Shown piece after piece: positions 3,606 through 64,000 of a stretch of 64,000 nt of DNA. Below the pieces are notes generated by a model, which was not told the origin of the DNA, made no database searches, and saw nothing but the letters and a program-made list of their open reading frames with translations. The stretch is from a virus (Duplodnaviria; Heunggongvirae; Uroviricota; Caudoviricetes): IMG/VR virus record IMGVR_UViG_3300033463_000003. One strand, 5' to 3'. Numbering within the stretch: the first letter of the stretch is position 1; every line of letters starts with the position of its first letter. Both the position numbers and the translations under genes were made by a program.

Positions 3606-4085
3606 ATGATCGTTAAAGATGTAATTCCAGTGGATTTCGTTAACTACAAGGAACCTGCTATGTATGTAGCATTCCCTTACTGTTCATTTAAATGCGATAA
3701 AGAGAATGGTTGTCAACTATGTCATAACTCACAGCTGGTCAGATCTCCCAACATCGAAGTATCTGCGGAAAGATTAGTGGAAATTTATGCCGATGATGCA
3801 AAGCCGATCGCAAATGCATTGGTCTGCTGTGGTCTGGAACCATTGGATAGCTTCCCTGATCTGTTAGACCTAATAGTGGAATTTCGTCACAGCTACGATG
3901 ATCCGGTAATTGTGTACACCGGTTATACCGAAACAGAAGCTGCTACGTATATAGAAGCTCTACAGAAGTTTCCAAATATTATAGTGAAATTCGGAAGGTT
4001 CCGCCCCAACCAACCACATCATGTGGATGAACTGTTGGGAATCGAGTTAGTAAATCCTGAACAATATTCCAAAAAAATATCTTAA
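3606..4085 (+). CDS. nrdG: Anaerobic RNR activating enzyme (radical SAM), 159 aa
   Basis: Cys cluster CSFKCDKENGCQLCHN near the N-terminus. Small phage-type NrdG size. Lies directly downstream of nrdD. Confidence 0.75.
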   Translation: MIVKDVIPVDFVNYKEPAMYVAFPYCSFKCDKENGCQLCHNSQLVRSPNIEVSAERLVEIYADDAKPIANALVCCGLEPLDSFPDLLDLIVEFRHSYDDPVIVYTGYTETEAATYIEALQKFPNIIVKFGRFRPNQPHHVDELLGIELVNPEQYSKKIS

Positions 4086-4120
4086 AAGCCGTTTACAAAA
4101 GCGGCTTTTTTTGTTATAAT
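4085..4120 (+). promoter_or_regulatory. Terminator hairpin (aagccg/cggctt plus U-run) with a TTTACA -35 in its loop, followed 17 nt later by TGTTATAAT
   Basis: aaagccgTTTACAaaagcggctttttttgTTATAAT. This is the first copy of the early terminator-promoter module. Confidence 0.6.
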
Positions 4121-4154
4121 ATATATAGAGAATAAATAATGGGAGGAATTACTA

Positions 4155-4403
4155 ATGAAATTATTTATTATCACAACAGCATCATTAGATGACGACGGAA
4201 ACTTCTACAGCGAGGTTCATAAAGTTTGTAAGACAGAACAAGAAGCTATCGATGAAGTAAGAAGATATCACGAACAAGTATTAACTTACTTCGATAATCC
4301 AGACAGCGACTATGATGATGGAGATAAGGGCTTCGATGTCTGTGAAGAGGATGATATTGGTATTAGACAATACTGCCAAATCAATACTGTCGAAATAAAT
4401 TAA
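4155..4403 (+). CDS. hypothetical acidic protein (82 aa)
   Basis: ORF with a GGAGG RBS, under an early promoter. Confidence 0.55.
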   Translation: MKLFIITTASLDDDGNFYSEVHKVCKTEQEAIDEVRRYHEQVLTYFDNPDSDYDDGDKGFDVCEEDDIGIRQYCQINTVEIN

Positions 4404-4406
4404 ATT

Positions 4407-4440
4407 AGGGGTTTACAAACCTCTTTTTTTGTGGTATAAT
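4407..4440 (+). promoter_or_regulatory. Early terminator-promoter module (aggggTTTACAaacctct hairpin, then TGGTATAAT)
   Basis: Hairpin followed by U-run, with a -35 in the loop and an extended -10. Confidence 0.55.
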
Positions 4441-4462
4441 ATAATTATAAGGAGGACAGTAT

Positions 4463-4927
4463 ATGTCTACAAGATCAAGAATTGGAATTAGAAATCAAAA
4501 TGGAAGTATTACTTCTATTTATTGTCATCACGATGGTTATCCAGACGGAGTTGGTGAAGTTTTATTAAATAATTATAAGACAGAAGAAAAGATTAGACAA
4601 TTATTATCATTAGGAGATTTAAGTTCTATTGGAACTGAACCTATTGACAATCCAAGAGCGTGGGAAAGACCAAAGCTAACAGGAAATATAGGCGATTGGG
4701 CAAAACAGTGGGCAGAAATTAACCCTGATAATATGTGTAACTCATATAGAAGTCGTGGTGAAGATGTGCCAGCAAGAACTAATAGAAATATAAATGGTTT
4801 TCTCAAACTTTCTAAAGATTGTTGGGCAGAATATGTTTATTTATTTGAAAAAGACGGAACTTGGAAAGTTTTAGAATATGGCGGGGAAGATTTTAGACCA
4901 CTTGCGGAGGTTTTAGCAAATGATTAA
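4463..4927 (+). CDS. hypothetical protein, paralog family A (154 aa)
   Basis: N-terminal 70 aa are nearly identical to ORF 13000-13443 (MSTRsRIGIkN...SIYCHHDGYPD). Confidence 0.6.
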   Translation: MSTRSRIGIRNQNGSITSIYCHHDGYPDGVGEVLLNNYKTEEKIRQLLSLGDLSSIGTEPIDNPRAWERPKLTGNIGDWAKQWAEINPDNMCNSYRSRGEDVPARTNRNINGFLKLSKDCWAEYVYLFEKDGTWKVLEYGGEDFRPLAEVLAND

Positions 4928-5076
4928 ATTAGAACTTACAAAAGAAGAAGCCGAAATGTTAGAAAGCTATTTATTCCGAAAACAAGTTAATTTGGAAAAT
5001 AGTAATTTAACCGACTCTAAATGTTACCCGCTTATTTGTAGTATTAGAAAAAAATTAAAAAATAATTAAAAATATA

Positions 5077-5106
5077 TTTACTTTTTATATTAAATATGTT
5101 ATAATA
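5077..5106 (+). promoter_or_regulatory. Early promoter (TTTACT, 17-nt spacer, TGTTATAAT)
   Basis: Match to the early consensus. Confidence 0.5.
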
Positions 5107-5131
5107 ATAATGTAAGTGAGGAGGAAATGTT

Positions 5132-5461
5132 ATGGCAAAAACTTACACAACTTGTATTGGAATGAGAGGCGGAGCAACACGTCGTGGTGGATGTGATGGC
5201 TGTAGAGCTTCAGTCCAAGCTTATGACGGTTCTGTTATTATAGAGAACTGGTATGACAATGAGACATTAAAAGTCAGAGTTTGTTTAGACGAAGGTTCAT
5301 CTTGTTATGGTGATACAGTTTTCACCGGAACTTTTGAAGAGTTCAAAGAAGCAATGCAACTTTTGAAAGACATTAAAGAAAAGAAAGTTTCAGTTACTAG
5401 ACATCGCGAGAAATCTAATAAAATGAAACAATTAGAAAAAATGTTCGGAGGCGCAAACTAA
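5132..5461 (+). CDS. hypothetical protein, paralog family B (109 aa)
   Basis: Paralog of 8350-8682. Shared motifs are GATRRGG and a C-terminal VTVHREKSNKMKQLE. Confidence 0.6.
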   Translation: MAKTYTTCIGMRGGATRRGGCDGCRASVQAYDGSVIIENWYDNETLKVRVCLDEGSSCYGDTVFTGTFEEFKEAMQLLKDIKEKKVSVTRHREKSNKMKQLEKMFGGAN

Positions 5462-5697
5462 TGGAACAAATGACTGTTGGAATGCTTGTTAAATTATTAA
5501 CTCAAGCTTGCTATGCTGATCCAAAAGTTGCCTACAAAAAAATTATTGTAGCAGATGATGAAGAGGGTAATTCATATCACGGAATGTACTATCATCCAAC
5601 AACTGATGCTAAAGACGTTAAAGAAAACCTTGAGTTCAGTAATGGTGTGTATGATACTGATACAGAAAACCCTGATGAGCTTGTAATTCTTGGTTAA
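5461..5697 (+). CDS. hypothetical protein, paralog family C (78 aa)
   Basis: Paralog of 14361-14564 (DDEEGNxYH...YH...E.PxExxILG). The ATGA stop/start overlaps the upstream gene. Confidence 0.55.
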   Translation: MEQMTVGMLVKLLTQACYADPKVAYKKIIVADDEEGNSYHGMYYHPTTDAKDVKENLEFSNGVYDTDTENPDELVILG

Positions 5698-5710
5698 AAA
5701 ATAATTAAAA

Positions 5711-8349: not shown

Positions 8350-8682
8350 ATGTCAAAATTCTATGGAATGGTTGTTGGCAATAGAGGCGCAGCAACACGT
8401 GGGGGAAGTGCTAACTCCGGATTCAAAGCAACAGCACAAAGTTGGGATGGCTCAGTCATCACAAGATTAGATTATGATAATGATAATAACCTCATTGTCA
8501 CAATTGAAATGGAAGAAGGCTCAAGAACTTACGGAGACGTAATGTTTAGAGGAACCTATGAAGAACTTAAAGAAGTTTTTGAAACTGCAAAGCTCATTAA
8601 AGAAAAAAGAGCAAGCGTTACAGTTCATCGTGAAAAATCAAATAAGATGAAACAGCTTGAAAGATGGGGATGGATTAAATAA
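8350..8682 (+). CDS. hypothetical protein, paralog family B (110 aa)
   Basis: Paralog of 5132-5461. ATG at 8350 follows aaaggaag. Confidence 0.6.
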   Translation: MSKFYGMVVGNRGAATRGGSANSGFKATAQSWDGSVITRLDYDNDNNLIVTIEMEEGSRTYGDVMFRGTYEELKEVFETAKLIKEKRASVTVHREKSNKMKQLERWGWIK

Positions 8683-12999: not shown

Positions 13000-13443
13000 A
13001 TGTCAACAAGATGCAGAATTGGAATTAAAAACAAAGATAATACTATTACATCAATCTATTGCCACCACGATGGTTATCCAGATTGTGTGGGTGATACTCT
13101 GGTAAATCATTACACCAACGAAGATAAGATTAGGAAACTTATGGAACTTGGTGATATGAGTTCTTTAGGAAATGAACCTATTGATAATCCAAACGCTTGG
13201 GAAACACCTGGACTATGTGATGACTGGTTTGGAAAGTATAAAGAATTACACCCTGATGATATGTGTGATACTTATAAGTCAAGAGGTGAAGATGTTCCAG
13301 CAAGTATAGACAATAACTTAAAAGAATATCAAGAACGTACCGAGGACAGTTGGGGTGAATATGGTTATATCTTCCAAGATAATGACTGGTATGTGTTTGA
13401 ATACAAAGGCGAAGAATTAAAATTAGTTAAAGATTTATTATAA
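13000..13443 (+). CDS. hypothetical protein, paralog family A (147 aa)
   Basis: Paralog of 4463-4927. Confidence 0.6.
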   Translation: MSTRCRIGIKNKDNTITSIYCHHDGYPDCVGDTLVNHYTNEDKIRKLMELGDMSSLGNEPIDNPNAWETPGLCDDWFGKYKELHPDDMCDTYKSRGEDVPASIDNNLKEYQERTEDSWGEYGYIFQDNDWYVFEYKGEELKLVKDLL

Positions 13444-40955: not shown

Positions 40956-43900
40956 ATGATTGGAAAAATAAATAAAAATTCAACATCTATTAGTGGAACA
41001 ATCAATAGTACAGCTCCTAGCACAGGGTCAGTAACTTCTGCAGCTGGTGGTACTAGTGATCATAAAAGATTAGCAAATAGAAGTGCTGCTGATCAACACC
41101 CTATTAGTGCTATTACTAATCTTCAAGATATTTTAGATAGTAAAGCAACTAAGGTTGAACTTGATGAGTTAAAAGCTCAATTAACAGAGAAAAGAGCCAA
41201 GGGCTTATACTATGATTTTAATAGTACTTTTGCTAAAAAGCCATACTGATATTTAGTTTCTGAAGTTGATTCTGAAACAGGCCAAGGAATTCCTGGCGAC
41301 GATGGTAGATATATTGTTTCTGGCCCATATGACCTCGGCCAAGGCGGCGGAGGCGGTGGTTCCGGTGGTGGTATTACTACTGTTACTTTAGTTAACCGTG
41401 ATCCTGAAACAAGTGAGTATTTATGGCCTACTGCTGTTGCTATTGGAGCAGATGTTAATTTAAAAGTTTATTGGTCATCAAAACGTGACGAAGATCCAAC
41501 TGGTAACGGCACGATGTTTGTTTATGTAAATGATATTTTAGTAGAAAAAAAGAATACAAAACAAGGACTTTATGAATGTAATGTTTCTAACTATTTAATA
41601 TCAGGAGCAAATAAAATTGAATTTAAAATTCAAGATGCTTATTCTACAACTAAAAATTTAATTGGTACTATTAATGCTGTTTCTCTTAAACTAACTTCTA
41701 AATTTGAAGATGATACTATTTTAACAGGCCTATTTACATATACCTATATTCCAGTAGGCGATGTTTTAAAATTAGTTCATTTTATTGTTGATGGTGTAGA
41801 AATTGGTGTTGATCAAGTAAGAACCTCTAATGAACAATGTACAAGAGTTTTTCAACCAATGAGTCATGGTTCACATACATTAGAAGTTTATTTTACTGCA
41901 GAAATTGATGGCGATTTTGCAGAATCTAACCATTTAAAGTATGATTTAATTGCTGCAGCATATGGTAATACTACTCCAATTATTGCTTCTACATTCCCAG
42001 CTCAAAGTGAGCAAGAGCAATATGTTGCATATAATATTAAGTATCGTGTATATACCCCAACTGCTGATGGTGGTCATAAAAATACATCTATTGTTAAATT
42101 ATTTATAGATGGTCAACAAGTTGGAAGTGACCTTTCAGTTAATACAAGTTGGCAAAACTGAGAAATTATTCCAACAGTTGTTGGCAATCACATTTATACT
42201 ATTCAAACTGGTTCAGTACAAAGAATTTTTAATGCACATGTTTTTGAAAGTACAATTAATGTTCAGCCAATTGAAACAAGCCAAGTTTTATATTTAACAA
42301 CATCAGGAAGAAGTAATGCAGAAGCATTAGAATCAAGAGTTGTTTGGGAAGATGCTGCACATGATATTCATTGTAATTTAACTGGTTTTAACTGGTCAGC
42401 TAATGGCTGGTTATCAGATAGTACAGGCACAACTGTTTTAAGACTTTCTGGTGATGCTCGTGTTGAAATTCCATATCAACCATTCTATAAAGATGTTCAA
42501 CAAACAGGTAAAACAATTGAAATTGAATTTGCCACATCAGATGTTAAGAAGTATGAATCTCGTATTCTTGAATGTTTAACAGGTGGTGATTCTTTAACTT
42601 ACTCACAAGCACTTGCTGGTGAAGATGATAGAGCACATTATTTTACTGTTACAGATGTTAATAGTGAAAAGTTTGTGCAAGCTGTTAGAGGTGATCATAG
42701 AACATACTTATTCTTACATGATGGAACTAACTGGACATTAGATGGTGAAGTTGTAGATTTAAGCCAAGATAATATTTATGGTATTTCAATTAGAATGGAA
42801 GATCGTGCTGGTGGAACACCTAGTGAATACTTTATTGAAGGTGATAGAATTACTGTTGCTTACTTAGTTGTTGGCCGTGGTATTTATATTACACCTCAAC
42901 TAGCTAAGTTCCAATCTCAATTATCCGCATTATCTACACAATATAAAGAAAATGAAAGAGTTTATTTAACATTTGTTATTGAAAAACGTGCTGAAAATAG
43001 ATTAATCTATATGTATATTAATGGTATTATGTCTGGTGTATCAGTATATCCATTAGGTGATACATTTGAACAAAACCCAGCTGCTAATATTATTTTAGGC
43101 AGCAATGATGCTACATTAGATATTTATACTATTCGTATTTATGATAACTCATTAAATAGAAAACAAGTTGTTAATAACTGGATTGCTAGTATGCGTGATC
43201 CACAAACAAGAGCCGCTTACTATCAAGAAAATGATAACTTTAATCCAGAAACAGGAAAAGTTGTTATTAGTAAAATCCCAAGTAAAACTCCTTACATGGT
43301 TTTAACTGGCCCAGAATTACCAGGATTTAAGAAAGATAAAAAACTTGTTGACGTTGAGTTTGTTTATCCAGGTAGTGATGAAAGATACTTTACTGCTCCA
43401 CAAGCACAAATTGACGTCCAAGGTACTTCTTCACAATATTATTATAGAAAGAACTTTAAAATTAACTTTAAAGAAGGTTTTTATGATATAGATAAAGAAT
43501 ATCATGAAAAATATAAGCATATTCCACCACTATCAAAGAAAGAAAAGAAGTTTACATTTAAGGCTGACGTTGCATCTTCAGAAGGTGCTAATAACGTTCA
43601 ATTAGTTAGATACTTTGAATTAACTAAAAACTGGCTAATGCCTGCTGAAAAAGATCAAGATGCTGATGATACTGCTGATGGATACTTAACAAAAGATAGA
43701 ATTCGTACTGGTATTGATGGTTTCCCAATGATTATGTTCCACAATAATGGTGCTGAAACATATTTCTATGGAAAGATGAACTTTAATAATGATAAAGATA
43801 ATAAGAGCACCTTTGGTTTTAGTGATGGTGATGAATGTTGGGAATTTGTTAACAATACTACACCATTAGTTTTATTTGAAGATGATGATTTATCAAATTG

Positions 43901-46900
43901 GCAAATAAGCTTTGAATCAAGATATCCAGAAGAATATGGTGAAGATGATCATGCTTATGGTACAAAGCCAGGCGAATTAGATAAGCTTCAAGCAGTAATG
44001 TCCTGGGTTGTTTCAACAAAGCGTTTACCAACAGATAGCGATGAAGAAAAAGCTAGAAAATTACAAAAGTTTAGGGATGAATTTGAAGATCATTTTAATT
44101 TACAATCTTCATTATTTTACTACTTATATACAGAATTATTCTTAATGGTTGACTCTCGTGCTAAAAACGCGATGTTAGCTTACTTAAAATCACATACACC
44201 AGGTGATAAAGGAAACAGATGGTTCTGGCTCCCATACGATATGGACACTGCAATAGGTACTAACAACGAAGGTTTATTAGTATTTAACTATGATGCTGAA
44301 GATACTGATATTGTTAATGGTGCTAACGTTTACAACGGCCAAGCTTCTGTTTTCTGGAATAACTTACGTGATGCTTTCCCAACTGAACTAAAACAGCTAT
44401 ATAGAGACTTACGTTCAGGCGCTGCTGGCGGTGATATGAAGTGGTCATATGATAATATTGAAAAATTATTTGAAGATCATCAAAGCTATTGGTCTGCATC
44501 TATCTTTAATGAGGACTCATATACAAAATATCTTGAACCATTAATTAATAATAATGATGCCACTTACTTAGGTATGGCACAAGGTTCAAAAGAAGAGCAA
44601 CGTAAATGGTGGTTGTGGAATAGATTTAGATATTTAGATAGTAAATATAGAACTGGTGATGCACAAGATCAGTACATTATGCTTCGTGCTTATGCTAGGG
44701 ACAATCTTGTTGTTACACCATATATTAACTGTTATGTTACGGGCGTTTTTGACCAAGTTAAAGATGAATCAATGGTTACAGTTGATGCATTAAAAGATAC
44801 TGCATATACAATTGTTCCACCTGAAACATGGGACCCAGCACGTATGGGCTCTGGTGGTTCTGACTCTGTTGTTGCTATTTATTCTGCTGATTTATTAAGA
44901 GATGTTGGTGATTTATCAGGATTTAAGCTTGGTTATGCAGACTTTTCACGTGCAACAAAACTTCAAAGATTACAAATTGGTTCAACTGCCCCAGGATATA
45001 CTAATAATAAACTAGAAACGCTTAACGTTGGTAATAACCACTTACTTACATATCTTGATGCTAGAAACTGTTCAGCACTAGGAACAGGTGATACTAAGAT
45101 TGTTGACCTTTCTAACTGTAATAGTATTGAAGAAGTTTACTTTGATAATACTAATATTCAAGGTGTTATGTTCCCTGTTGGTGGTAACTTAAAGAAAGTT
45201 CATTTACCAGCTTCTATTACTGACTTAACAATTAGAAGTCATCCAAATCTTAATGAATTAAAATTATATGGAACAGATAACTTAACATCAGTTTGGCTTG
45301 AAGATATTCCTTCTTCAAGTATTTCAGCTGTTGAAATTATCAGTGCAATGGATGAGGGTGCAACTGCTCGTTTAATTAATATTAATGAAACTATTGATTC
45401 AGTTGAAACTCTTGAAAATTTCTATGATAAGCTTTGGACTATGAAAGGTAAAGATAACAAAGGTGATACTACAGACAAAGCTCAAATTACAGGTATTATC
45501 AATCTTTCACAATTAACTAATATTTCATATGCTGACTGGGTTAGATTATCTGCTATGTTCCCAGAAGTTGAAATTAGAGGCAATATTATTTGTAATGTTA
45601 ATTTCTGGAATGATGATGTTTTATATGCAACAAGAAATGTTATACTCGGTCGTGCCGCTGTTGCACCAGAAATGCCATCACGTACACCAACAGCTCAATA
45701 TTACTATACATTTGCTGGTTGGGATGGCGATTTTAGTACAGTAACTCAGGATTTAGATATTCATGCTACCTATGATGAACATATTCAAGTATATCATATT
45801 ATTTTTGATGTACGTTCAGAAGTAATTGAGCTTGAGCAAGATACATTTGATTTAGAATATGGTTCAGCAATTCCAGAGCCAGTTATTATTCAAGAGACTA
45901 TCCCAGAAGGTGTCAATTTCTTAGGTTGGCATACAGCTAATAATGACCTAGTTGATTTTAATACAATTACTGTATCTGGAGATATTATTAATTTCCCAGA
46001 GACCAAGAATATTATTATTTCTGCCCGTTGGCAAGATGAAAATGCTCCATTAGTTACATTATCACGTATTTCATATAATAAATTTGCATATAGAGCTACT
46101 GATAACTTAGGTATTGTTGCTTATGCAATTACAGATAGCGAAGTATTAACACCAATTGATGAAAGATGGCATTTAATTACTTCTACAACATTGTATGAAG
46201 GTGAACATACAATTAATGCTACTGGTGATTATTATTTCCATGTTAAAGATGATCAAGGTAATACATCATGGGCAAAAATTACAGCATATGAAGTTAATGT
46301 AATTCAAAATATTAATAATGAATTTGATAGTTCTACTAATATTATTCAAGTTACATATTCAGAACAAGCAGATTTAAGTAATCAATTTACAACGGTTTTT
46401 GCACTTTCTGGCACAAAATTATATATAGATGCAACAAATGATTCACATTATGAAAATTTAAGCTTAAAACATAATGCAGCAGTTGTTAACATTGGTGATT
46501 CTATAACTGTTAACCAAACAATTGTTATTATGGCAAGTGTTACACCAAAAGTATATCGTGTTACATTTGATATTAATTTACCACAAGCTTTAATTGAATC
46601 CTTAACCGAGGAACAAATTGAAGCAATGACTCCATGGCCACAAGATGTTATTTATAAGCATAAAGTTATTGAGCCAGAACCACAATCATTAAATGGCTAT
46701 ATTCTTGATGCATGGAAAACAATTGATGATGAATTATGGAGCTTTGCATCTAATGTAATTTTAGGTGCTCTAACATTGTATGCTGTTTGGGCAGAGTACT
46801 CAGACCCAACAACTATTGTTATTGATACAACTGAAGAAAATCAAGAAGTTCATATTAATTTATGGCAAGAAACTGCAATGGCTGTAAAGGTTGTTTGGGG

Positions 46901-48233
46901 TGATAATACCGGTGAGCAAGCAATCAATGAAGCTGGTGGTGTTACATTTACACACACATATTCTGATGCTAATACATATTCTATTCAAGTTTATAGATAT
47001 GCAGGAAATTATCATTTAGGTTGAAACTTTGATACACCAGCAGTACAACCAATTAATATTGTTTCTGATGTTATTTTTGCTTTTGATGTCGCTTATACAA
47101 ATCCAGGTGCATTTAGAGGTGCAACACATCTTAGTACAATTCGACTAACAAGATTTATGACTAAGATTGCAGACAGTACTTTTGAAGATTGTACTGGAGC
47201 CGTGTCATTTGATGGCGGAACTTATAATATTCCAAATTCAATTCAAAATATCGGTGGTCGTGCTTTTGCTGGTTGTACAGGCTTAACGAGAGTTACATTG
47301 CCAAGTAAACTTCAAGTGTTAGGTGATAACGTATTTAGAGGATGTACAAATCTTACAAATATTACATTTTCTAACGAATGTACATTAGCTAAAATTTCAG
47401 CTTATGCCTTCTATGGATGTTCAAGTTTATCCACAATAAATATTCCAGGCAGTGTTACAACTATTGGTGAAAATGCTTTTGGAAACTGTATAGCTTTATC
47501 AGAGCTATATTTAGGCACAAATGTTACAACTATTAATTCAGAAGCTTTTGCTAACTGTTCTTCATTAGAATATATTACTATTATGGCCCCACATATGATT
47601 ACTATGGATAGAGACTGCTTCTATGGTTGTTCATTATTAGAAACAGCTGGCCCAATTAGTGGTAATTATAATATTAAATTTGGTTGGACACAAGTAATTC
47701 CAGCTAATGCATTTAACGTATCATATGCTGCTGCATCTGCTTTACGTTCAATAACTTTACCATTAACTATTGAAGAAATTGGTGATAATGCATTCTATGA
47801 CTGCCAATACTTAAATAGTATTAATTATGTTGGTAGTACATATGATATTAATATTTTCCCAAATAGCTTACGTATTATTGGTAATAGCTGTTTTAATGGC
47901 TGTGCATCACTTCAAAATATTACTATCCCATCTAGCGTAGAATCAATGGGTGATAGTGTATTTAGAAGTTGCCGTGGCTTAACAAGAGCTTATTTATATT
48001 TAGCAAGTAGTAGCCATAAGATTGATTCACCACTATGTGGTTGGTTCTATAACACAAGATTTATTACACAACCAGATGGTTCACAAGTACAGCAAATTGA
48101 AATTCATGTTCCAAATGATATTACAGAGGGACAAGATGACCTTTATTACGGTGCATATTGGAACTGTCATATTTATGATGGTACTTCCCAACCACCAACA
48201 ATTATAATGCTTGCGTATATAAGCGACCTATAG
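40956..48233 (+). CDS. Giant structural / host-interaction protein (about 2425 aa) with three in-frame TGA codons. Contains a Gly-rich N-terminal region, a CotH-like kinase-fold domain and C-terminal BspA-type leucine-rich repeats.
   Basis: Track ORFs 40956-41249, 41514-42161, 42675-47024 and 47157-48233 all lie in frame 0. The inter-ORF stretches of 264, 513 and 132 nt contain no TAA or TAG. TGA codons are at 41250, 42162 and 47022. SRAKNAMLAYLKSHTPGDKGNRWFWLPYDMDTAIG resembles the CotH catalytic region. The C-terminal region carries repeats of the form G(C/N)xxLxxIxIPxSVxxIGxxAF(xxC), as in BspA-type leucine-rich-repeat proteins. Confidence 0.7.
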
Positions 48234-53492: not shown

Positions 53493-55184
53493 ATGGCAAC
53501 ACGTCCAACAATAACATATTCAAATGTTAAACATAAAGTAATTGGTGGCGTTTCAGGCGGAAATTTTACATATAATGATGAGGATATTTCTGTCCTTTTT
53601 AATGGTGGTGTTGGCGGAAGTACATCGTATAAAGTTTCTTGTAATTCACCATTTAACCAAATAACAGGACAATTTACATCTAGTATTGCTTTAACAAGAT
53701 TTGAAATAAGAGTTAATCCAATAGAGGAAGAAGAATATGGACCAAATATTGGCAATTTAGTTTGTATGGAGCTTGGTATTTCAGCCAATACAGCTAAATC
53801 ATTTTCATTTACTATTTCAACATCTACTTTTAATGGAAGCCCCACTAACACATATAGAGTTTGCTTATTATCGCAAGCGCAATCCGATTATACATGGGAT
53901 TATACAGCATTATTTATGGTTATTAATAATTCATTTACTGACCTTTATAAAGAAGTAGAGTACCTTAGTTTTAGTCGTGATAGTAATCCATGTTGTATAG
54001 ATACAGGTGTTACTATGCAAAAAACTTATTCTATAGAAACAGCTATGGAACTTACAAATACTTCAGGTGATAATCAATTCTTATTTAGTGATAGATCCAG
54101 CAGTGGTGGTTATTTCCATGTTTATGTTGCGCCATCAAGATTTGCTACATATCAGTCGCCAAATGTTGGTACTATTACTATGGCATTAAACCAAAAATAT
54201 ATATTTAGAAAAGTTGGAACAAGCTGTTATGTAGATAGCACTTATTATGGTGAATCTGGGACAAGCACTCAGACAACACGAACTTTATTAATTGGTTGTG
54301 TTGATTCTACGACAAATACTCGTGGTTTTTATGGAAAGTGCTATTATTTTAAAATTTATGATGCTAATAAATCACTTCTTAGATGTTTTATACCTTGTGT
54401 TAGAAAAAGTGATTCAGTACCTGGAATGTTTGATACTGTTAATGAAGTATTTTATCAGAATACAGCTAGTGGCTCATTTACAGCTGGCCCAGAAATAGAA
54501 TTACCGGCAGCATATCAAGAAATAGAGTATCTTGAATCAACAGGATCACAATATATTAATACTGGTTTTATTCTTGATTTTAATACTAGAGTTGTTTGTG
54601 ATATGGCTTTAACTTCCCAAACAACTGGTATAATGTTGTGGGGCGCAATCGGTTCAACACCAAATATATTAGAATATTCTTGCTATGTAAACAGTAGTAA
54701 AATAAGGCCATATTTTCAGGTAAATAGCTCAACATATTATCAATTTTATTCTGATACCTTACTAACAAATCAATTAATACATATTGATTTTGATGTTAAA
54801 CCAGATAAACAACAAATAGTAACATCACAGGGTAGTAATGCTTATACATATGATAAAACATTTAATTTAACAACTTCTAATACATCTGACCATAATATGT
54901 TTATTTTTGCTTCTTCTACAAATAGTGGTGGTGTAGGTTGGCCAGGTGCATCAAAGTTATATAATATGAAAATATATAAAAATGATGAACTTGTTAGATA
55001 TTTTATTCCATGCTATAGGAAATCAGATAGTAAGCCAGGATTATATGACCTAGTAAATGATGTTTTTTATGTAAATCAAGCAAGTGGTACTGAATTTACA
55101 ATGGGGCCAGCTTGTGAAAATATGCGTTCAGTTAATGCTTATGAAAAGTTTGTTCCAACAGGTGCAGACGGATTTGCTGTTTAG
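53493..55184 (+). CDS. Tail-fibre-like protein (563 aa) carrying two copies of a ~40-aa module also found in 59480-63196
   Basis: CFIPCVRKSDSVPGMFDTVNEVFYQNTASGSFTAGPE and RYFIPCYRKSDSKPGLYDLVNDVFYVNQASGTEFTMGP. Confidence 0.55.
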   Translation: MATRPTITYSNVKHKVIGGVSGGNFTYNDEDISVLFNGGVGGSTSYKVSCNSPFNQITGQFTSSIALTRFEIRVNPIEEEEYGPNIGNLVCMELGISANTAKSFSFTISTSTFNGSPTNTYRVCLLSQAQSDYTWDYTALFMVINNSFTDLYKEVEYLSFSRDSNPCCIDTGVTMQKTYSIETAMELTNTSGDNQFLFSDRSSSGGYFHVYVAPSRFATYQSPNVGTITMALNQKYIFRKVGTSCYVDSTYYGESGTSTQTTRTLLIGCVDSTTNTRGFYGKCYYFKIYDANKSLLRCFIPCVRKSDSVPGMFDTVNEVFYQNTASGSFTAGPEIELPAAYQEIEYLESTGSQYINTGFILDFNTRVVCDMALTSQTTGIMLWGAIGSTPNILEYSCYVNSSKIRPYFQVNSSTYYQFYSDTLLTNQLIHIDFDVKPDKQQIVTSQGSNAYTYDKTFNLTTSNTSDHNMFIFASSTNSGGVGWPGASKLYNMKIYKNDELVRYFIPCYRKSDSKPGLYDLVNDVFYVNQASGTEFTMGPACENMRSVNAYEKFVPTGADGFAV

Positions 55185-59479: not shown

Positions 59480-62400
59480 ATGGCATTATTAGCTTGGTTT
59501 CCATTAAATAATTCAATAACAAATTTAGGTGAAAATACTTTTACTATTACTTCACCTTCTTTTACTGGTGCTGTAAATACAGGTGGAACTGGGAAAACAG
59601 CCACTTATTGCGGTAGTTTTTCTACTGTATCTGGTGCAGCACAATCATATTTATCATCAGAAACTATTTCATTAAAAAGCACAGATCCGATTTCTATTTT
59701 TTGCTGAGTTAAAATGAATAGCTTTAATATGATAAATGATGGTGCATATTTAAATGGGCTTGTATCAAATCATAATCATGGGCATAATAGCGACCATGGC
59801 TCTGGTTTTGGCCTTAATTTAAGAAATGATGGAAGCAGTTTTAGAGTAAGTATTTCAACATCACATACTAGTGGTAGAACTTATTCTACTTATTATGGCA
59901 ATACTACTTTTGGAACTGGTGAATGGCATCACGTTGGTTTTACATATGATGGCACCAAGATTAGGCTTTATTTAGATGGAAATTTAGATGGAGAGTCTTC
60001 TTTTACTTCTTCTTATAATTCAAATAACCCAATTGGTCTAGCCTGTTGGTCTACTGGCTTTTCTGATTATGGAAGTGAATGTTGCCTTCAAGATGTAAGA
60101 GTTTATAATCATGCTTTATCAACAAAAGAAATAAAAAATCTTGCAAGAGGTTTAGTTGTCCACTATGATTTTGAAGATATTTATGAGCTTGTTGATTGTG
60201 TAAATTTTTTCACTCTCTTTACTGACGCTGGAACTCTTGATACTCTACCAGCTACACCTGATTATAATTCATTTGTATTAGAGGTTAATGCTACTAACGC
60301 TGTTCCAAGTTCAACTTCAGCCCGAACTTTTATTATTTGTAATGGAACGGTTACATTAAGTGGTAGTTCTGGCGGTGTGTTTGTTATAATGCCTATATTG
60401 TCACCAACTTGAGGTATTTATGTAAATGGTAATGGATATTATGGCTACTATGATGGAACTAATTATGTAGATACTAGTATTTTAGCTAGTTCAGGTAAAG
60501 CAATAATTACATATAATTATACAACTCATATTTTAACAGTAAACAATTATAGTGTTAACGTTTCATTTAGTAGCAAGCCAAATGGGCTTATGCCATGTGC
60601 TAGTAGAATTGCATATGTAACAAGTACTACATCTATTAATATTTATAGTTTAAAATTTTTTGATAGCAATAATAAGTTAGTGAGTGCTTATTTACCTGCA
60701 ACTAGCCATACTGATGGTACAATTGGCCTATATGATAGAATTACTAACAAATTTATTACATCGCAATTAGATATACTTTCAGCAAATACTCAAGCTACTC
60801 CAGCAAAGATTCAAACAAAAATTGTACCTGATATTAGTGGTAATTGCTTGCATGGACAGTTTAATGCTTCAACTTCATTTGTTAGTGATACAGCAATAGG
60901 AACAAAAGCTGCCTCATGTGCTTCAACAGGCATTATTACACCAACATTACCCGTATTTACACAATATACTATTTCTATGTGGTTTAAGCTTGGGGCAACT
61001 GGTACTATGCCACTTGGTTCAAATACTTTAACAGCACAAAATACATCTTTTTACTGCTATGGTGATAACTCTTGAGCATATACAACAAGTGCAGGTTGGC
61101 AAGAAAAGTATTATAATCATAATGGTGGTGCTGTTTCTACCAGCAATTGAGTTCATTGGGTAGCAACATATGATGGAACCAATACTAAAATTTATAGAAA
61201 TGGTGTGTTAGAGGGAACAGATGCTGTTACAACAGCTGGAGCCACTGTTAACTTCCCACAAATTTCAGTTGGCTATGGGTATAATGGTTCTTCTTATTGG
61301 TCAACACAAAAAATTGCAGATTTTAGACTTTATGCAACAGCTTTATCAGCTGATGATATTTTAGAGCTATATAAATGTAGAGGAATAATTGATAAGGCTG
61401 GCAATATTTATAGTGATAGTAGTATACCTGGTAGTGAATTTACTATTACAAAAAAGGGCATTGCAACTATTGATGATTATACAAAAGGCGGTAGTATTGC
61501 CAAAATTGCAGGAAGCAAATATACTCGCCTTGAATATATTGAATCTGTTAATGGATCAGCATATATTAATACTAATTATATTTATAGTAATAGTGCAACC
61601 GATAATGCTAGAATAGTTGTTGATTATACACCAGTGACACTATCTGATGATGGTACATACTATAAATATCGTGTTAGTGGTTCATATAATGGCGAGCCTT
61701 ATAGAGCAATGATTTTATATGGTACTCCTGCAACTGCTGAACAATTAAGACTTGGTAATGGTGCAGGTGATTATCCAGTTTTAGTATCAGGAAATGCTTT
61801 TCATCCAGCCGCTGGGACAAGATATTTAATGGATTTGACAGCTAAAGGTGGTGTTGTCTCTGGCACAGTTAATGGTGTAACAGCATCTGGTACGTATTCA
61901 GGAACAGTTTATAGTAATAGGCCATATTTAATTTTTGCAAATAATGAAAACGGAACACCAGGATACTATGGTAGATTTAGACTGTATAGTTTTAAAATGT
62001 ATGACTGTGATAAATTAGTTAGAGACTTTATTCCAGTTAAAAAAGGTACTGCTGTAGGATTATATGATTTGGTTGAGGGCAAATTTTATAGCAATGCAGG
62101 TGCAAATTCATTTACTGCTGGCCCAGAAATAGGGAGTTTAAATGCCATTAGTTGTAACAATTTTTATGATGATGGTGGTGCCGCTATTGCAACACATAAT
62201 TTATTAGCAAATAAGTTAATAAAAAATAATATTACTGTTGTTTTAAACACAGGTGTTAATAGTATTGTAGTAACTAAAACAGATTTAGATGGTGGGCAAT
62301 CAACTCAAACATTTATATCAAATGGAACATGCTCAAGTGCAATTAATTATCCATATGCATGGACAGCTAGTGCTAAATCATCTTATTCAGTATATCCAAG

Positions 62401-63196
62401 TAGTGGTAGCGGCTATTTTCATAATGGTGAATATACTGTTATTTCACCAACCGCAACAAGAAAGACACAAACAATTACTATATCATTACCAACTAATGTA
62501 GCATCTGTTACATTAACTTATTATAATGCCTCTGAAACATCAACAACAACTACCTTTACTTCAAATGGTTCAGTTACAGCAGCTCAAGGCTATACCTATT
62601 CATGGACAGCAAAACCAGCTCGTGGGTATTCTTTAAGCTCATCAAGTGGAACTGGTACTGTTTCTACAGTAGCTATAACAGTACCATCAACAACTGCTAC
62701 AGCTTTAACTGCCTACACAATGGCATTTACAAGTAATACATACTGCTCTTGGGATAGTAGTACTTCTGCAACAATATATTCTGGTGAGTATTTAGAGGTT
62801 AGTACTCTTGCACTTGGTACCATACTTAAGCCTTATGTTTCTTGTAAGAGCGATTCAAGTAGTAGTGCAACTACTTATTGGACAAGACAGGTTACATTAG
62901 GAAGTGAAACTGGTTATACATACTCATTTAGTAATTTCTATCAGGGAACTTCTAGTTCAGGCACTGTTTTATCATCTAGTACATATGATGGTAGTTTTAC
63001 AAATATTTATGCTTATACTACAAGGACACAAGAATGTTCAAGTTATAATGTTTGTACGGGCCGTACAATTTGTGGTAATAACATTATAATTTGTGGATCC
63101 AGAACCATTACATGCCCAACTAGAGGTATATGCACTAAGGATGTACTCAGCAATGGTGATGACTTAGATAATGAGTGGGAAGAACATATTATCTAA
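59480..63196 (+). CDS. Multi-domain LamG/ConA-like lectin-fold fibre protein (1238 aa) with four in-frame TGA codons and a Cys-rich C-terminal tail
   Basis: Track ORFs 59480-59707, 59714-60412, 60590-61075 and 61205-63196 all lie in frame 2. LamG_3 signatures ISIFC(TGA)VKMN...GEWHHVGFTYDGTKIRLYLDG and TISMWFKLG...VHWVATYDGTNTKIYRNG. The C-terminus reads CTGRTICGNNIIICGSRTITCPTRGIC. Confidence 0.65.
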
Positions 63197-63229
63197 AAAT
63201 AATTGTATAATATAATTAAGGTAAATAGT

Positions 63230-64000
63230 ATGCAATTTGTATTTCAGATAACTTATAACTGTAATCTTAGATGTGAGTATTGTTACCAGCCAAAAACTAA
63301 GCATAAGGTTCTTAAAAAAGAAGAAGCTTTTGAATTTATTGATGAGTGGTTTAAATACTATATTACAGATGAATCAAAAATATTTTCAGTGTATATGGCT
63401 AAACATGATAAGCCAGAATCTTACACCTTAAATTTCTTTGGCGGTGAACCATTACTATATCCAGAGCTACTTATGGATATAATAGATTACTTTAAAGAAA
63501 GCTGTATAAAAAATAATTTAGAGCGTCTATGGGATAATACTTCTATTGTTTTTCAGACAAATGGAACTTTAATTCAAACACCTAATGTATTAGCCTTAAA
63601 AGATAAATATAAAGATCGTATTATCTGGCACATTACTTTTGAAGGAACAGCAGAGTGTCAGGATGCAAAAAGAAAATTTGCAGATGGTAGTGGTTCTTAT
63701 AGTATTATTAAAGATAATTTGGACTATCTTATAGAAGAATATAATGACCCAGAATTAAAACGCTTTCCAGATAAGCTTACTTTTACTCCTGAAACTGTGC
63801 CATTAATATTATCAGTTACAAAAGCATTAATAAAAATTGGTTATCACTATGTTGGGTTAGACTATGATTCAACAATACAGATTAATGAAAAAGAATCTGA
63901 AGAGTATTATCAAGCTTTATGCCGAGCAATTGATTATATAGTTGATAATAGAGTTAGACTTTATCCACGTCATTTTGGTTATACTTATAATAATACAACA
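63230..64000 (+). CDS. Radical SAM enzyme, anSME/SPASM-maturase-like (3'-truncated at the window end, at least 257 aa)
   Basis: ITYNCNLRCEYCYQ (CxxxCxxC at residues 11-18, as in anaerobic sulfatase-maturating enzymes and peptide-modifying rSAMs). NFFGGEPLL SAM-binding motif. Its own TGTATAATAT promoter at about 63206. Not in the ORF track because no stop lies within the window. Confidence 0.6.
   Translation, partial: MQFVFQITYNCNLRCEYCYQPKTKHKVLKKEEAFEFIDEWFKYYITDESKIFSVYMAKHDKPESYTLNFFGGEPLLYPELLMDIIDYFKESCIKNNLERLWDNTSIVFQTNGTLIQTPNVLALKDKYKDRIIWHITFEGTAECQDAKRKFADGSGSYSIIKDNLDYLIEEYNDPELKRFPDKLTFTPETVPLILSVTKALIKIGYHYVGLDYDSTIQINEKESEEYYQALCRAIDYIVDNRVRLYPRHFGYTYNNTT

Follow-up and report, generated by a model that had tools for sequence, protein, structure and literature searches.

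Cysteine-ladder tail of a LamG-domain virion protein next to a radical-SAM/SPASM enzyme gene in a TGA-recoded phage: a candidate thioether cross-linking cassette

Near the 3′ end of IMGVR_UViG_3300033463_000003, a 64,000-nt stretch of tailed-phage DNA (Caudoviricetes) that was analysed at its full length (hereafter the window), the gene for a 1238-aa virion structural protein with a ladder of regularly spaced cysteines at its end is directly followed by a gene for a radical S-adenosylmethionine (radical-SAM, rSAM) enzyme of the SPASM type (Table 1). Judged from sequence comparison, it is on balance probable that this tail is enzymatically cross-linked by the neighbouring enzyme, giving thioether staples at the C-terminal end of the virion protein. 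The LamG-domain virion protein with its Cys ladder and the downstream rSAM/SPASM enzyme would form a two-gene cassette in a TGA-recoded phage, and the enzyme would modify the ladder within the host cytoplasm, as particles assemble or earlier. SAM would be cleaved to a 5′-deoxyadenosyl radical, the radical would abstract hydrogen from a carbon close to each cysteine, in a side chain or in the backbone, and that carbon would be joined to the cysteine sulfur held at an auxiliary Fe–S cluster. Several thioether staples could in this way be placed in the C-terminal ~50 residues and, unlike disulfides, they would be non-reducible. We infer that the tail is the substrate and a thioether the product, the latter being the most likely outcome because PapB, QhpD and CteB, all relatives of the enzyme, join a Cys sulfur to another residue's carbon. 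The links could lie within one chain or between the chains of an oligomer, and the acidic segment behind the ladder could act as a tag, provide acceptors or be removed. A rigid tip, resistant to proteases and to reduction, may be the benefit.

The enzyme gene continues past the window end. Its full-length product of 425 aa (P0001), 100% identical to the part in the window, is encoded on public contigs of up to 273 kb, and over the window's final 10.8 kb, contig L001 differs at one base only (10770 of 10771 matching). The initial annotation of the window, made from the letters and their open reading frames (ORFs), had described a radical-SAM gene with CNLRCEYC at residues 11–18 and GGEPLL. Both motifs are present, and the Pfam model Radical_SAM (PF04055) matches the window fragment with 46.5 bits against a gathering threshold of 29.5 (E = 6e-12). 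The auxiliary-cluster cysteines for which it proposed looking in the full gene lie in a complete SPASM domain beyond the window (TIGR04085, 33.2 bits against a cutoff of 27, aa 262–356), and all seven are invariant or nearly so: C11, C15, C18, C262, C280, C326, C329, C335 and C338 are invariant among 38 relatives, in which C356 is at least 90% conserved. A conserved 55-residue extension follows the SPASM domain in this clade, likewise beyond the window. An N-terminal peptide-recognition domain is absent because the cluster motif already begins at residue 11.

The best-scoring family for the full-length enzyme is TIGR04115 ('radical SAM peptide maturase, CXXX-repeat target family'), which aligns end-to-end (positions 5–359 of 359) with 141 bits; P0002 and P0003 reach 122 and 137 bits, and true members of the family 384–508 bits. 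The next scores are those of PapB (NF047865, 105 bits, cutoff 340), QhpD (TIGR03906, 73 bits, cutoff 453), the SCIFF maturase (TIGR03974, 61 bits, cutoff 425) and the anaerobic sulfatase-maturating enzyme (anSME; TIGR03942, 51 bits, cutoff 349). In PHROGs, P0001 matches phrog_1802 ('radical SAM domain-containing protein', function unknown; E = 5.7e-36, aa 3–399), which is also matched by a phage enzyme of the true TIGR04115 type (P0006, 7e-67). An AlphaFold model of P0001 was obtained (predicted local distance difference test, pLDDT, 85; predicted template modelling score, pTM, 0.88), and Foldseek placed CteB first (E = 1e-16), followed by anSME (4e-13) and ChlB; CteB was also the sole match in a PDB sequence search. 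CteB (5WGG) and anSME (4K36) are the closest solved folds, at 17–20% sequence identity. By these sequence and profile comparisons, the enzyme is a diverged relative of the TIGR04115 family and of PapB, QhpD and CteB. Functions of the QueE, NrdG or viperin type were rejected, since they scored 22–42 bits and lack SPASM; a grouping with QueE or NrdG had been named in the initial annotation as evidence that would speak against cross-linking, and the enzyme groups with Cys-peptide maturases instead.

The ORF ending at 63196 closes with the 55 residues QECSSYNVCTGRTICGNNIIICGSRTITCPTRGICTKDVLSNGDDLDNEWEEHII, the final 53 of which form a six-Cys ladder and then an acidic tail. The ladder cysteines are residues 1186, 1192, 1198, 1205, 1212 and 1218 (spacing 6, 6, 7, 7 and 6), so that the three C-x-x-R-(T/G)-I-(T)-C units first noted here are present and are more fully described as six spaced cysteines. 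Six cysteines within 33 residues were obtained in 69 of 20000 shuffles of the 1238-aa protein, and this is the only genuine ORF of the 64-kb window with at least six regularly spaced cysteines. The acidic tail may serve as a recognition ('follower') sequence or supply acceptor residues. The Ser/Thr-rich module that precedes the ladder occurs also on otherwise unrelated N-terminal parts, in proteins of 233 and 452 aa, and without a Cys tail in two further homologues (P0124 and P0125). No model in Pfam or NCBIfam matches the tail module, the C-terminal 207 aa having no NCBIfam match, TIGR04114 and TIGR04117 included.

The length of the virion protein depends on the genetic code. With the standard bacterial code, the region 5′ of 63196 splits into four ORFs of one frame, and all interruptions are TGA. 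The window genome decodes TGA as Trp: 43 in-frame TGA stand against 217 TGG codons window-wide, spread unevenly over the genes (0 to 6 per gene), and all complete ORFs (55 of 55) terminate in TAA or TAG. The 1238-aa gene holds four in-frame TGA (59705, 60410, 61073 and 61148), at usual LamG Trp sites such as ..SIFC-W-VKM. No tRNA genes were found in the 64-kb window, hence no suppressor tRNA in it. The 1238-aa protein is real because of this decoding, as judged from the TGA/TGG counts, the TAA/TAG stops and two public pipelines that call the same length. The "1238-aa LamG-like protein" of the initial annotation therefore stands as to LamG, with Pfam Laminin_G_3 (PF13385) matching two stretches at E = 2.2e-35, and as to length provided that TGA is read as Trp.

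In PHROGs, the N-terminus of the 1238-aa protein matches phrog_26670 and phrog_8510, both 'virion structural protein', and no match goes beyond this to a fibre-specific homology. This gene closes a series of very large structural-type genes that all point in one direction, with an Ig-domain protein and a 'tail protein' hit among the products. Its LamG domains are compatible with an adhesion role, and a fibre or receptor-binding protein is plausible; of the earlier term "fibre protein", the virion assignment is upheld by PHROGs, but "fibre" may be read only as a plausible kind of structure. A ~50-residue motif (..Y-x-F-K-I/M-Y-D...L-V/L-R-x-F-I-P...G-L/M-Y/F-D-x-V...F-Y-x-N...F-T-x-G-P-E) occurs once in this protein (61900–62100) and twice in a 563-aa protein (window 53493–55184), and may be a module common to structural proteins.

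The 33-nt gap between the two genes contains no terminator, and promoter signals near it do not exceed chance, with six promoter-like sites found against 7.9 expected from shuffles, so that the promoter first assigned to the enzyme gene was not borne out. The tail gene and the enzyme gene are probably on one transcript. Behind the enzyme gene, the window lineage carries a gene whose 175-aa product has a membrane helix at its N-terminus and a region resembling a coiled coil (L001 11380–11907); this gene is absent from L006 and L007, in which a MazG-like gene (112–121 aa) directly follows the rSAM gene. A separate small precursor gene was also considered for the enzyme and rejected, with no Cys-rich ORF found within 10 kb downstream.

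Close relatives of the enzyme are rare, with three clusters among 5.8 billion proteins; searches of viral and metagenome contigs with the fragment or with a four-enzyme alignment found none, and blastn of window positions 62000–64000 against phage records gave no match. Among the relatives, the order of a Cys tail and then an rSAM gene is found in the window and L001–L004, in L005, in L007 and in L096, that is in four sequence variants and three enzyme lineages, the paired enzymes being 64–80% identical and the tails standing on three N-terminal architectures (1238, 233 and 452 aa). The L005 and L007 enzymes share 74–80% identity with the window enzyme and are preceded by a 233-aa protein that has only its last ~150 residues in common with the window protein and ends in a ten-Cys ladder and LSTGDDPL..(E/D)WEETIR. 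In L096, a 452-aa protein with yet another N-terminal part (P0123) terminates in CGFDGVCPSDHVICTKLCSGDGIICADLGIGCGKDALNVGDSPNSNGEWEEIIE and is directly followed by a 433-aa rSAM enzyme, 64% identical to that of the window. A word-indexed protein search retrieved only P0121 with the C-terminal module and nothing with the short tails; P0123–P0125 were found by an exhaustive HMMER search with the module.

In the alignment of the four variants, six of the six window cysteines are invariant, against two of the 27 intervening residues, and the TNIYAY.TR junction and the G-D...W-E-E-x-I motif are conserved as well, with the number of Cys repeats ranging from 6 to 10. On this alignment, the cysteines are under purifying selection. 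Two homologues of the module, P0124 and P0125, end directly behind TNLYA and lack the Cys tail. Of these, P0124 (on L097) has usable flanks; it is followed by unrelated small genes and no rSAM gene, and provides a negative control.

More distant relatives of the enzyme (25–35% identity) likewise adjoin CXXX-repeat proteins. Enzymes that score as true TIGR04115 members stand beside CXXX-repeat ORFs in seven of the nine best bacterial loci and in eight of nine phage loci, and among 71 loci of other related enzymes from that genome scan, 40 show a SCIFF-like Cys-repeat peptide immediately 5′ of the enzyme. The phage contig L010, which carries baseplate-wedge and Phage_tail_fib genes, encodes two enzymes, one of them with 384 bits on TIGR04115, and each is followed by a 219–235-aa protein with 28 cysteines at every fourth position. 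In L009, L011 and L015, a conserved domain of ~100 aa is fused to CXXX repeats directly 5′ of the enzyme. This globular domain (..D-F/Y-x-x-L/I-K...E-x-x-R-R...E-H-x-N-K-I..) is N-terminal in these three loci and C-terminal in L010 (2545–3249 and 7321–7977). It and the phage CXXX proteins have no match in Pfam or NCBIfam, and in PHROGs only phrog_6085 (unknown function). In a profile comparison, the domain was unrelated to the C-terminal module of the window protein.

A tblastn search of cultured-phage records matched 69 records. Erwinia phage phiEaH2 (NC_019929, L013 3090–3889), Salmonella phage STsAS (MH221128, L101 2088–2896) and Cronobacter phage CR5 (JX094500, L102 2142–2953) each have two consecutive CXXX-repeat ORFs, with 15–21 regularly spaced cysteines in each ORF, located between a 'virion structural protein' gene and an rSAM gene pair; in the records, these jumbo-phage ORFs are either unannotated or annotated only as short pieces. 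Gene callers also missed the CXXX ORFs of L009 (about 5090–5707) and L011 (about 3933–5468), which have 23 and at least 68 consecutive cysteines, and gave out-of-frame Val/Pro/Leu-rich 'proteins' instead. Protein databases therefore probably list too few of the Cys-repeat partners of rSAM enzymes. In a human faecal 'Bacteriophage sp.' (MT837480, L099 2219–2743), the CXXX protein directly 5′ of the rSAM gene has a twin-arginine-like start, SRREFFKNAAKSVLPILG, which suggests that some members of the CXXX-repeat family are exported folded or modified. The window tail is read as a substrate because an adjacent Cys ladder is, as a rule, the substrate in this branch of the superfamily.

Partner size bears on the idea that the tail is a precursor peptide that, once modified, would be cut from its large carrier or leader protein and set free as a small bioactive peptide. 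The products of the enzyme's relatives are mostly ribosomal peptide natural products, the bacterial CXXX partners are peptides of 60–94 aa (60–90 aa for TIGR04115 partners) or, in Termititenax, proteins of ~670 aa, and the tail terminates in a distinct and conserved acidic segment. In other phages, however, the Cys-repeat partners are not short peptides: they are proteins of 130–500 aa with a conserved globular domain. Moreover, no protease or exporter/transporter was found among the genes called up to 10 kb to either side, the preceding ~150-aa module and its invariant TNIYAY.TR are co-conserved with the tail, as a single folded unit would be, and we know of no precedent for a leader of 1180 residues. 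We therefore regard release of a peptide as very improbable.

Comparison with known systems places the proposed cross-linking nearest to TIGR04115, in which the enzyme has the same SPASM Cys pattern (C-x2-C-x5-C-x2-C) and a neighbour-encoded partner with regular cysteines, both enzymes fall into phrog_1802, and members occur in phage structural-gene neighbourhoods. True members have an N-terminal extension of ~45–55 aa, whereas the window enzyme lacks it and has its 55-aa extension at the C-terminus; the TIGR04115 targets are separate repeat proteins, whereas the ladder is here fused to the C-terminus of a virion protein. TIGR04115 and its targets TIGR04114 and TIGR04117 are a curated prediction of NCBIfam, and a literature search found no biochemical study of the family. 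The pairing of an rSAM enzyme with a Cys-repeat target is thus already curated in NCBIfam, and in PHROGs each partner has a family of unknown function. The cassette was first put forward as novel, and a full-text search (with most subscription journals outside its coverage) found no literature on this family, on its phage occurrence or on rSAM-modified virion proteins; the pairing as such is nonetheless an existing, uncharacterised family concept.

PapB, the maturase of freyrasin (a ranthipeptide with Cys-to-Asp thioethers at the beta carbon), represents the second-best family and likewise uses SPASM and sets serial thioethers into Cys repeats. It cross-links Cys to Asp or Glu, is leader-independent and works at C-termini beside acidic residues (PMC12715619, PMC12373016), and its recognition domain comprises the N-terminal residues 1–86 (PMC12715619). 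The tails described here are Asp/Glu-rich, with C-x-x-D/E units in L005, L007 and L096. They differ from the PapA motif C-x3-D, carried by a short peptide, in that the window tail has no C-x3-D units, and the 86-aa recognition domain has no counterpart in the window enzyme. QhpD, the third-best family, is an rSAM-SPASM enzyme that installs Cys thioethers inside a protein subunit of a larger complex (PMC10114670), and its product remains a structural part of that complex. Its substrate QhpC, the gamma subunit of quinohemoprotein amine dehydrogenase, differs in being small, dedicated, equipped with a leader and periplasmic, not part of a virus particle. SCIFF peptides resemble the window tail as Cys ladders directly 5′ of their maturase, but CteB has an N-terminal recognition domain.

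The enzyme could also modify the tail by another chemistry, such as formylglycine formation as in anSME, dehydroalanine formation, epimerisation or a C–C or C–O link. Like the window enzyme, anSME has no recognition domain; it modifies whole proteins and was the second structural match. SPASM enzymes are chemically diverse, with cyclophane, epimerase-like and other families among the NCBIfam matches, and Arg soon follows Cys in three of the tail units (CTGR, CGSR and CPTR), loosely recalling the sulfatase motif. That motif, C/S-x-P/A-x-R, is nevertheless absent from the tail, in which Arg stands at +3 and Pro, where present, at +1; Arg at this position is unconserved in L005, L007 and L096; and anSME scores well under the thioether-forming families. 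In all of the nearest characterised relatives, the sulfur of a thioether comes from Cys. These points disfavour the anSME/formylglycine reading included in the initial annotation, and make a chemistry other than thioether formation decidedly improbable.

Several observations weigh against cross-linking of the tail by its neighbour. The enzyme stays below the curated cutoffs of every named family (141 bits against 350 for TIGR04115), and the TIGR04115 targets have a Cys spacing of 4 and 20–120 cysteines, compared with a spacing of 6–7 and 6–10 cysteines here. The tails offer no consistent acceptor, since the third residue behind Cys varies between R, N, D and K, with Asp and Glu frequent in L005, L007 and L096. 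AlphaFold gave no usable model of the tail (C-terminal 208 aa with a two-sequence alignment, pLDDT 33). The clade itself comprises four sequence variants only, all metagenomic, and the support as a whole consists of sequence and gene order. The downstream synteny, with the MazG-like gene and thymidylate synthase, is conserved too, so that the adjacency could partly reflect a module boundary. Finally, L006 encodes an enzyme 99.3% identical to that of L096 behind an unrelated upstream gene with no tail.

The last two observations would also fit an incidental adjacency, in which the ladder would have a plain structural role, for instance as disulfide or metal-binding rungs in the tip of a trimeric fibre, and the enzyme's substrate would lie elsewhere in the ~270-kb genome or in the host. 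Metal-binding repeats along the fibre axis are known in T4-type fibres, and the enzyme gene borders structural genes and a nucleotide-metabolism block of conserved order. The sequences of L006 (1500–1900) and L096 (3010–3410) coincide only from the final six codons of the preceding gene (..EEIIE, stop) onward, and an Rfam search of the ~200-nt GC-rich spacer in L006 found no family. L006 is either chimeric or a natural recombinant whose tail was lost, and a chimera is compatible with the data because the scaffold has a 10-N gap at 1588–1597, 270 nt upstream, and the break lies exactly at the end of the tail gene. The tail and the enzyme, moreover, are kept in direct contact in four variants despite the swapped rest of the upstream protein, the tail-less P0124 has no neighbouring enzyme, no other Cys-repeat ORF is present in the 64-kb window or the 10 kb downstream, and related enzyme families almost always adjoin their Cys-repeat substrate. 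An incidental adjacency is accordingly rather unlikely in our view.

The co-occurrence proposed as a check in the initial annotation was hence found in the four paired variants and, conversely, in the tail-less homologue without an rSAM gene, but not in L006. Taken as a whole, the interpretation of the tail as a cross-linked substrate appears supported by the comparative data, in that each of the refutation tests named for it that could be run came out in its favour.

Table 1. Coordinates of the two genes, their domains and motifs, and the spacer between them in the window
Feature	Position in window	Strand	Remarks
1238-aa virion structural protein gene	59480..63196	+	TGA=Trp; stop TAA at 63194; called as 1238 aa by JGI and ENA pipelines
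First LamG/concanavalin-like domain	59642..60136 (aa 55-219)	+	Pfam PF13385
Second Laminin_G_3 stretch	about aa 505-632	+	placed by sequence motifs, no tool coordinates
Ser/Thr-rich C-terminal module before Cys ladder	62636..63034	+	conserved; terminates in invariant TNIYAY.TR
Cys ladder CSSYNVCTGRTICGNNIIICGSRTITCPTRGIC	63035..63133 (aa 1186-1218)	+	candidate substrate core
Acidic C-terminal tail TKDVLSNGDDLDNEWEEHII	63134..63193	+	conserved; consensus L-x-x-G-D-...-W-E-E-x-I-x
Spacer, 33 nt	63197..63229	+	AAGG about 9-12 nt 5′ of ATG
Radical-SAM/SPASM enzyme, first 257 of 425 codons	63230..64000	+	ORF continues past window end
CxxxCxxC cluster motif	63260-63283 (CNLRCEYC, aa 11-18)	+	direct reading
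GGEPLL	63440-63457 (aa 71-76; FFGGEPLL 69-76)	+	direct reading

Elsewhere in the window, a 2425-aa protein (40956–48233) has C-terminal repeats of the leucine-rich type with regular cysteines (..F.GC..L..I.IP..V..IG..AF..C..L..) and also Listeria-Bacteroides-type repeats, and is probably a large adhesin-like virion protein. The early region contains two pairs of paralogous small genes (4463–4927 and 13000–13443; 5132–5461 and 8350–8682), with the signatures MSTRxRIGIxN....ITSIYCHHDGYPD.. and M..Y....G.RGxATRxGG.., respectively.

Radical-SAM/SPASM maturases are known from the biosynthesis of small peptide natural products and from the maturation of a few enzymes. Our results raise the possibility, which we put forward tentatively, that Cys cross-links installed by such enzymes are an unrecognised post-translational modification of phage particle proteins, in the fused form described here and as stand-alone CXXX proteins beside structural genes in many phages, including cultured jumbo phages of the SPN3US-like and phiEaH2-like groups. 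If so, phages would make non-reducible covalent staples in their virions by natural-product chemistry, and phage assembly, with a virion protein as substrate, would gain a new class of covalent modification, beside the HK97-type isopeptide chainmail and self-cleaving fibre chaperones. This would also suggest how adhesion tips survive in reducing, protease-rich anaerobic habitats, in which disulfides fail. The jumbo phages of Salmonella, Erwinia and Cronobacter, with related enzymes beside overlooked CXXX-repeat genes, would provide culturable models. For enzymology, the window enzyme, which has no recognition domain, would represent a leader-independent type that apparently reads a C-terminal tag, a property that is now being engineered in PapB for peptide macrocyclisation.

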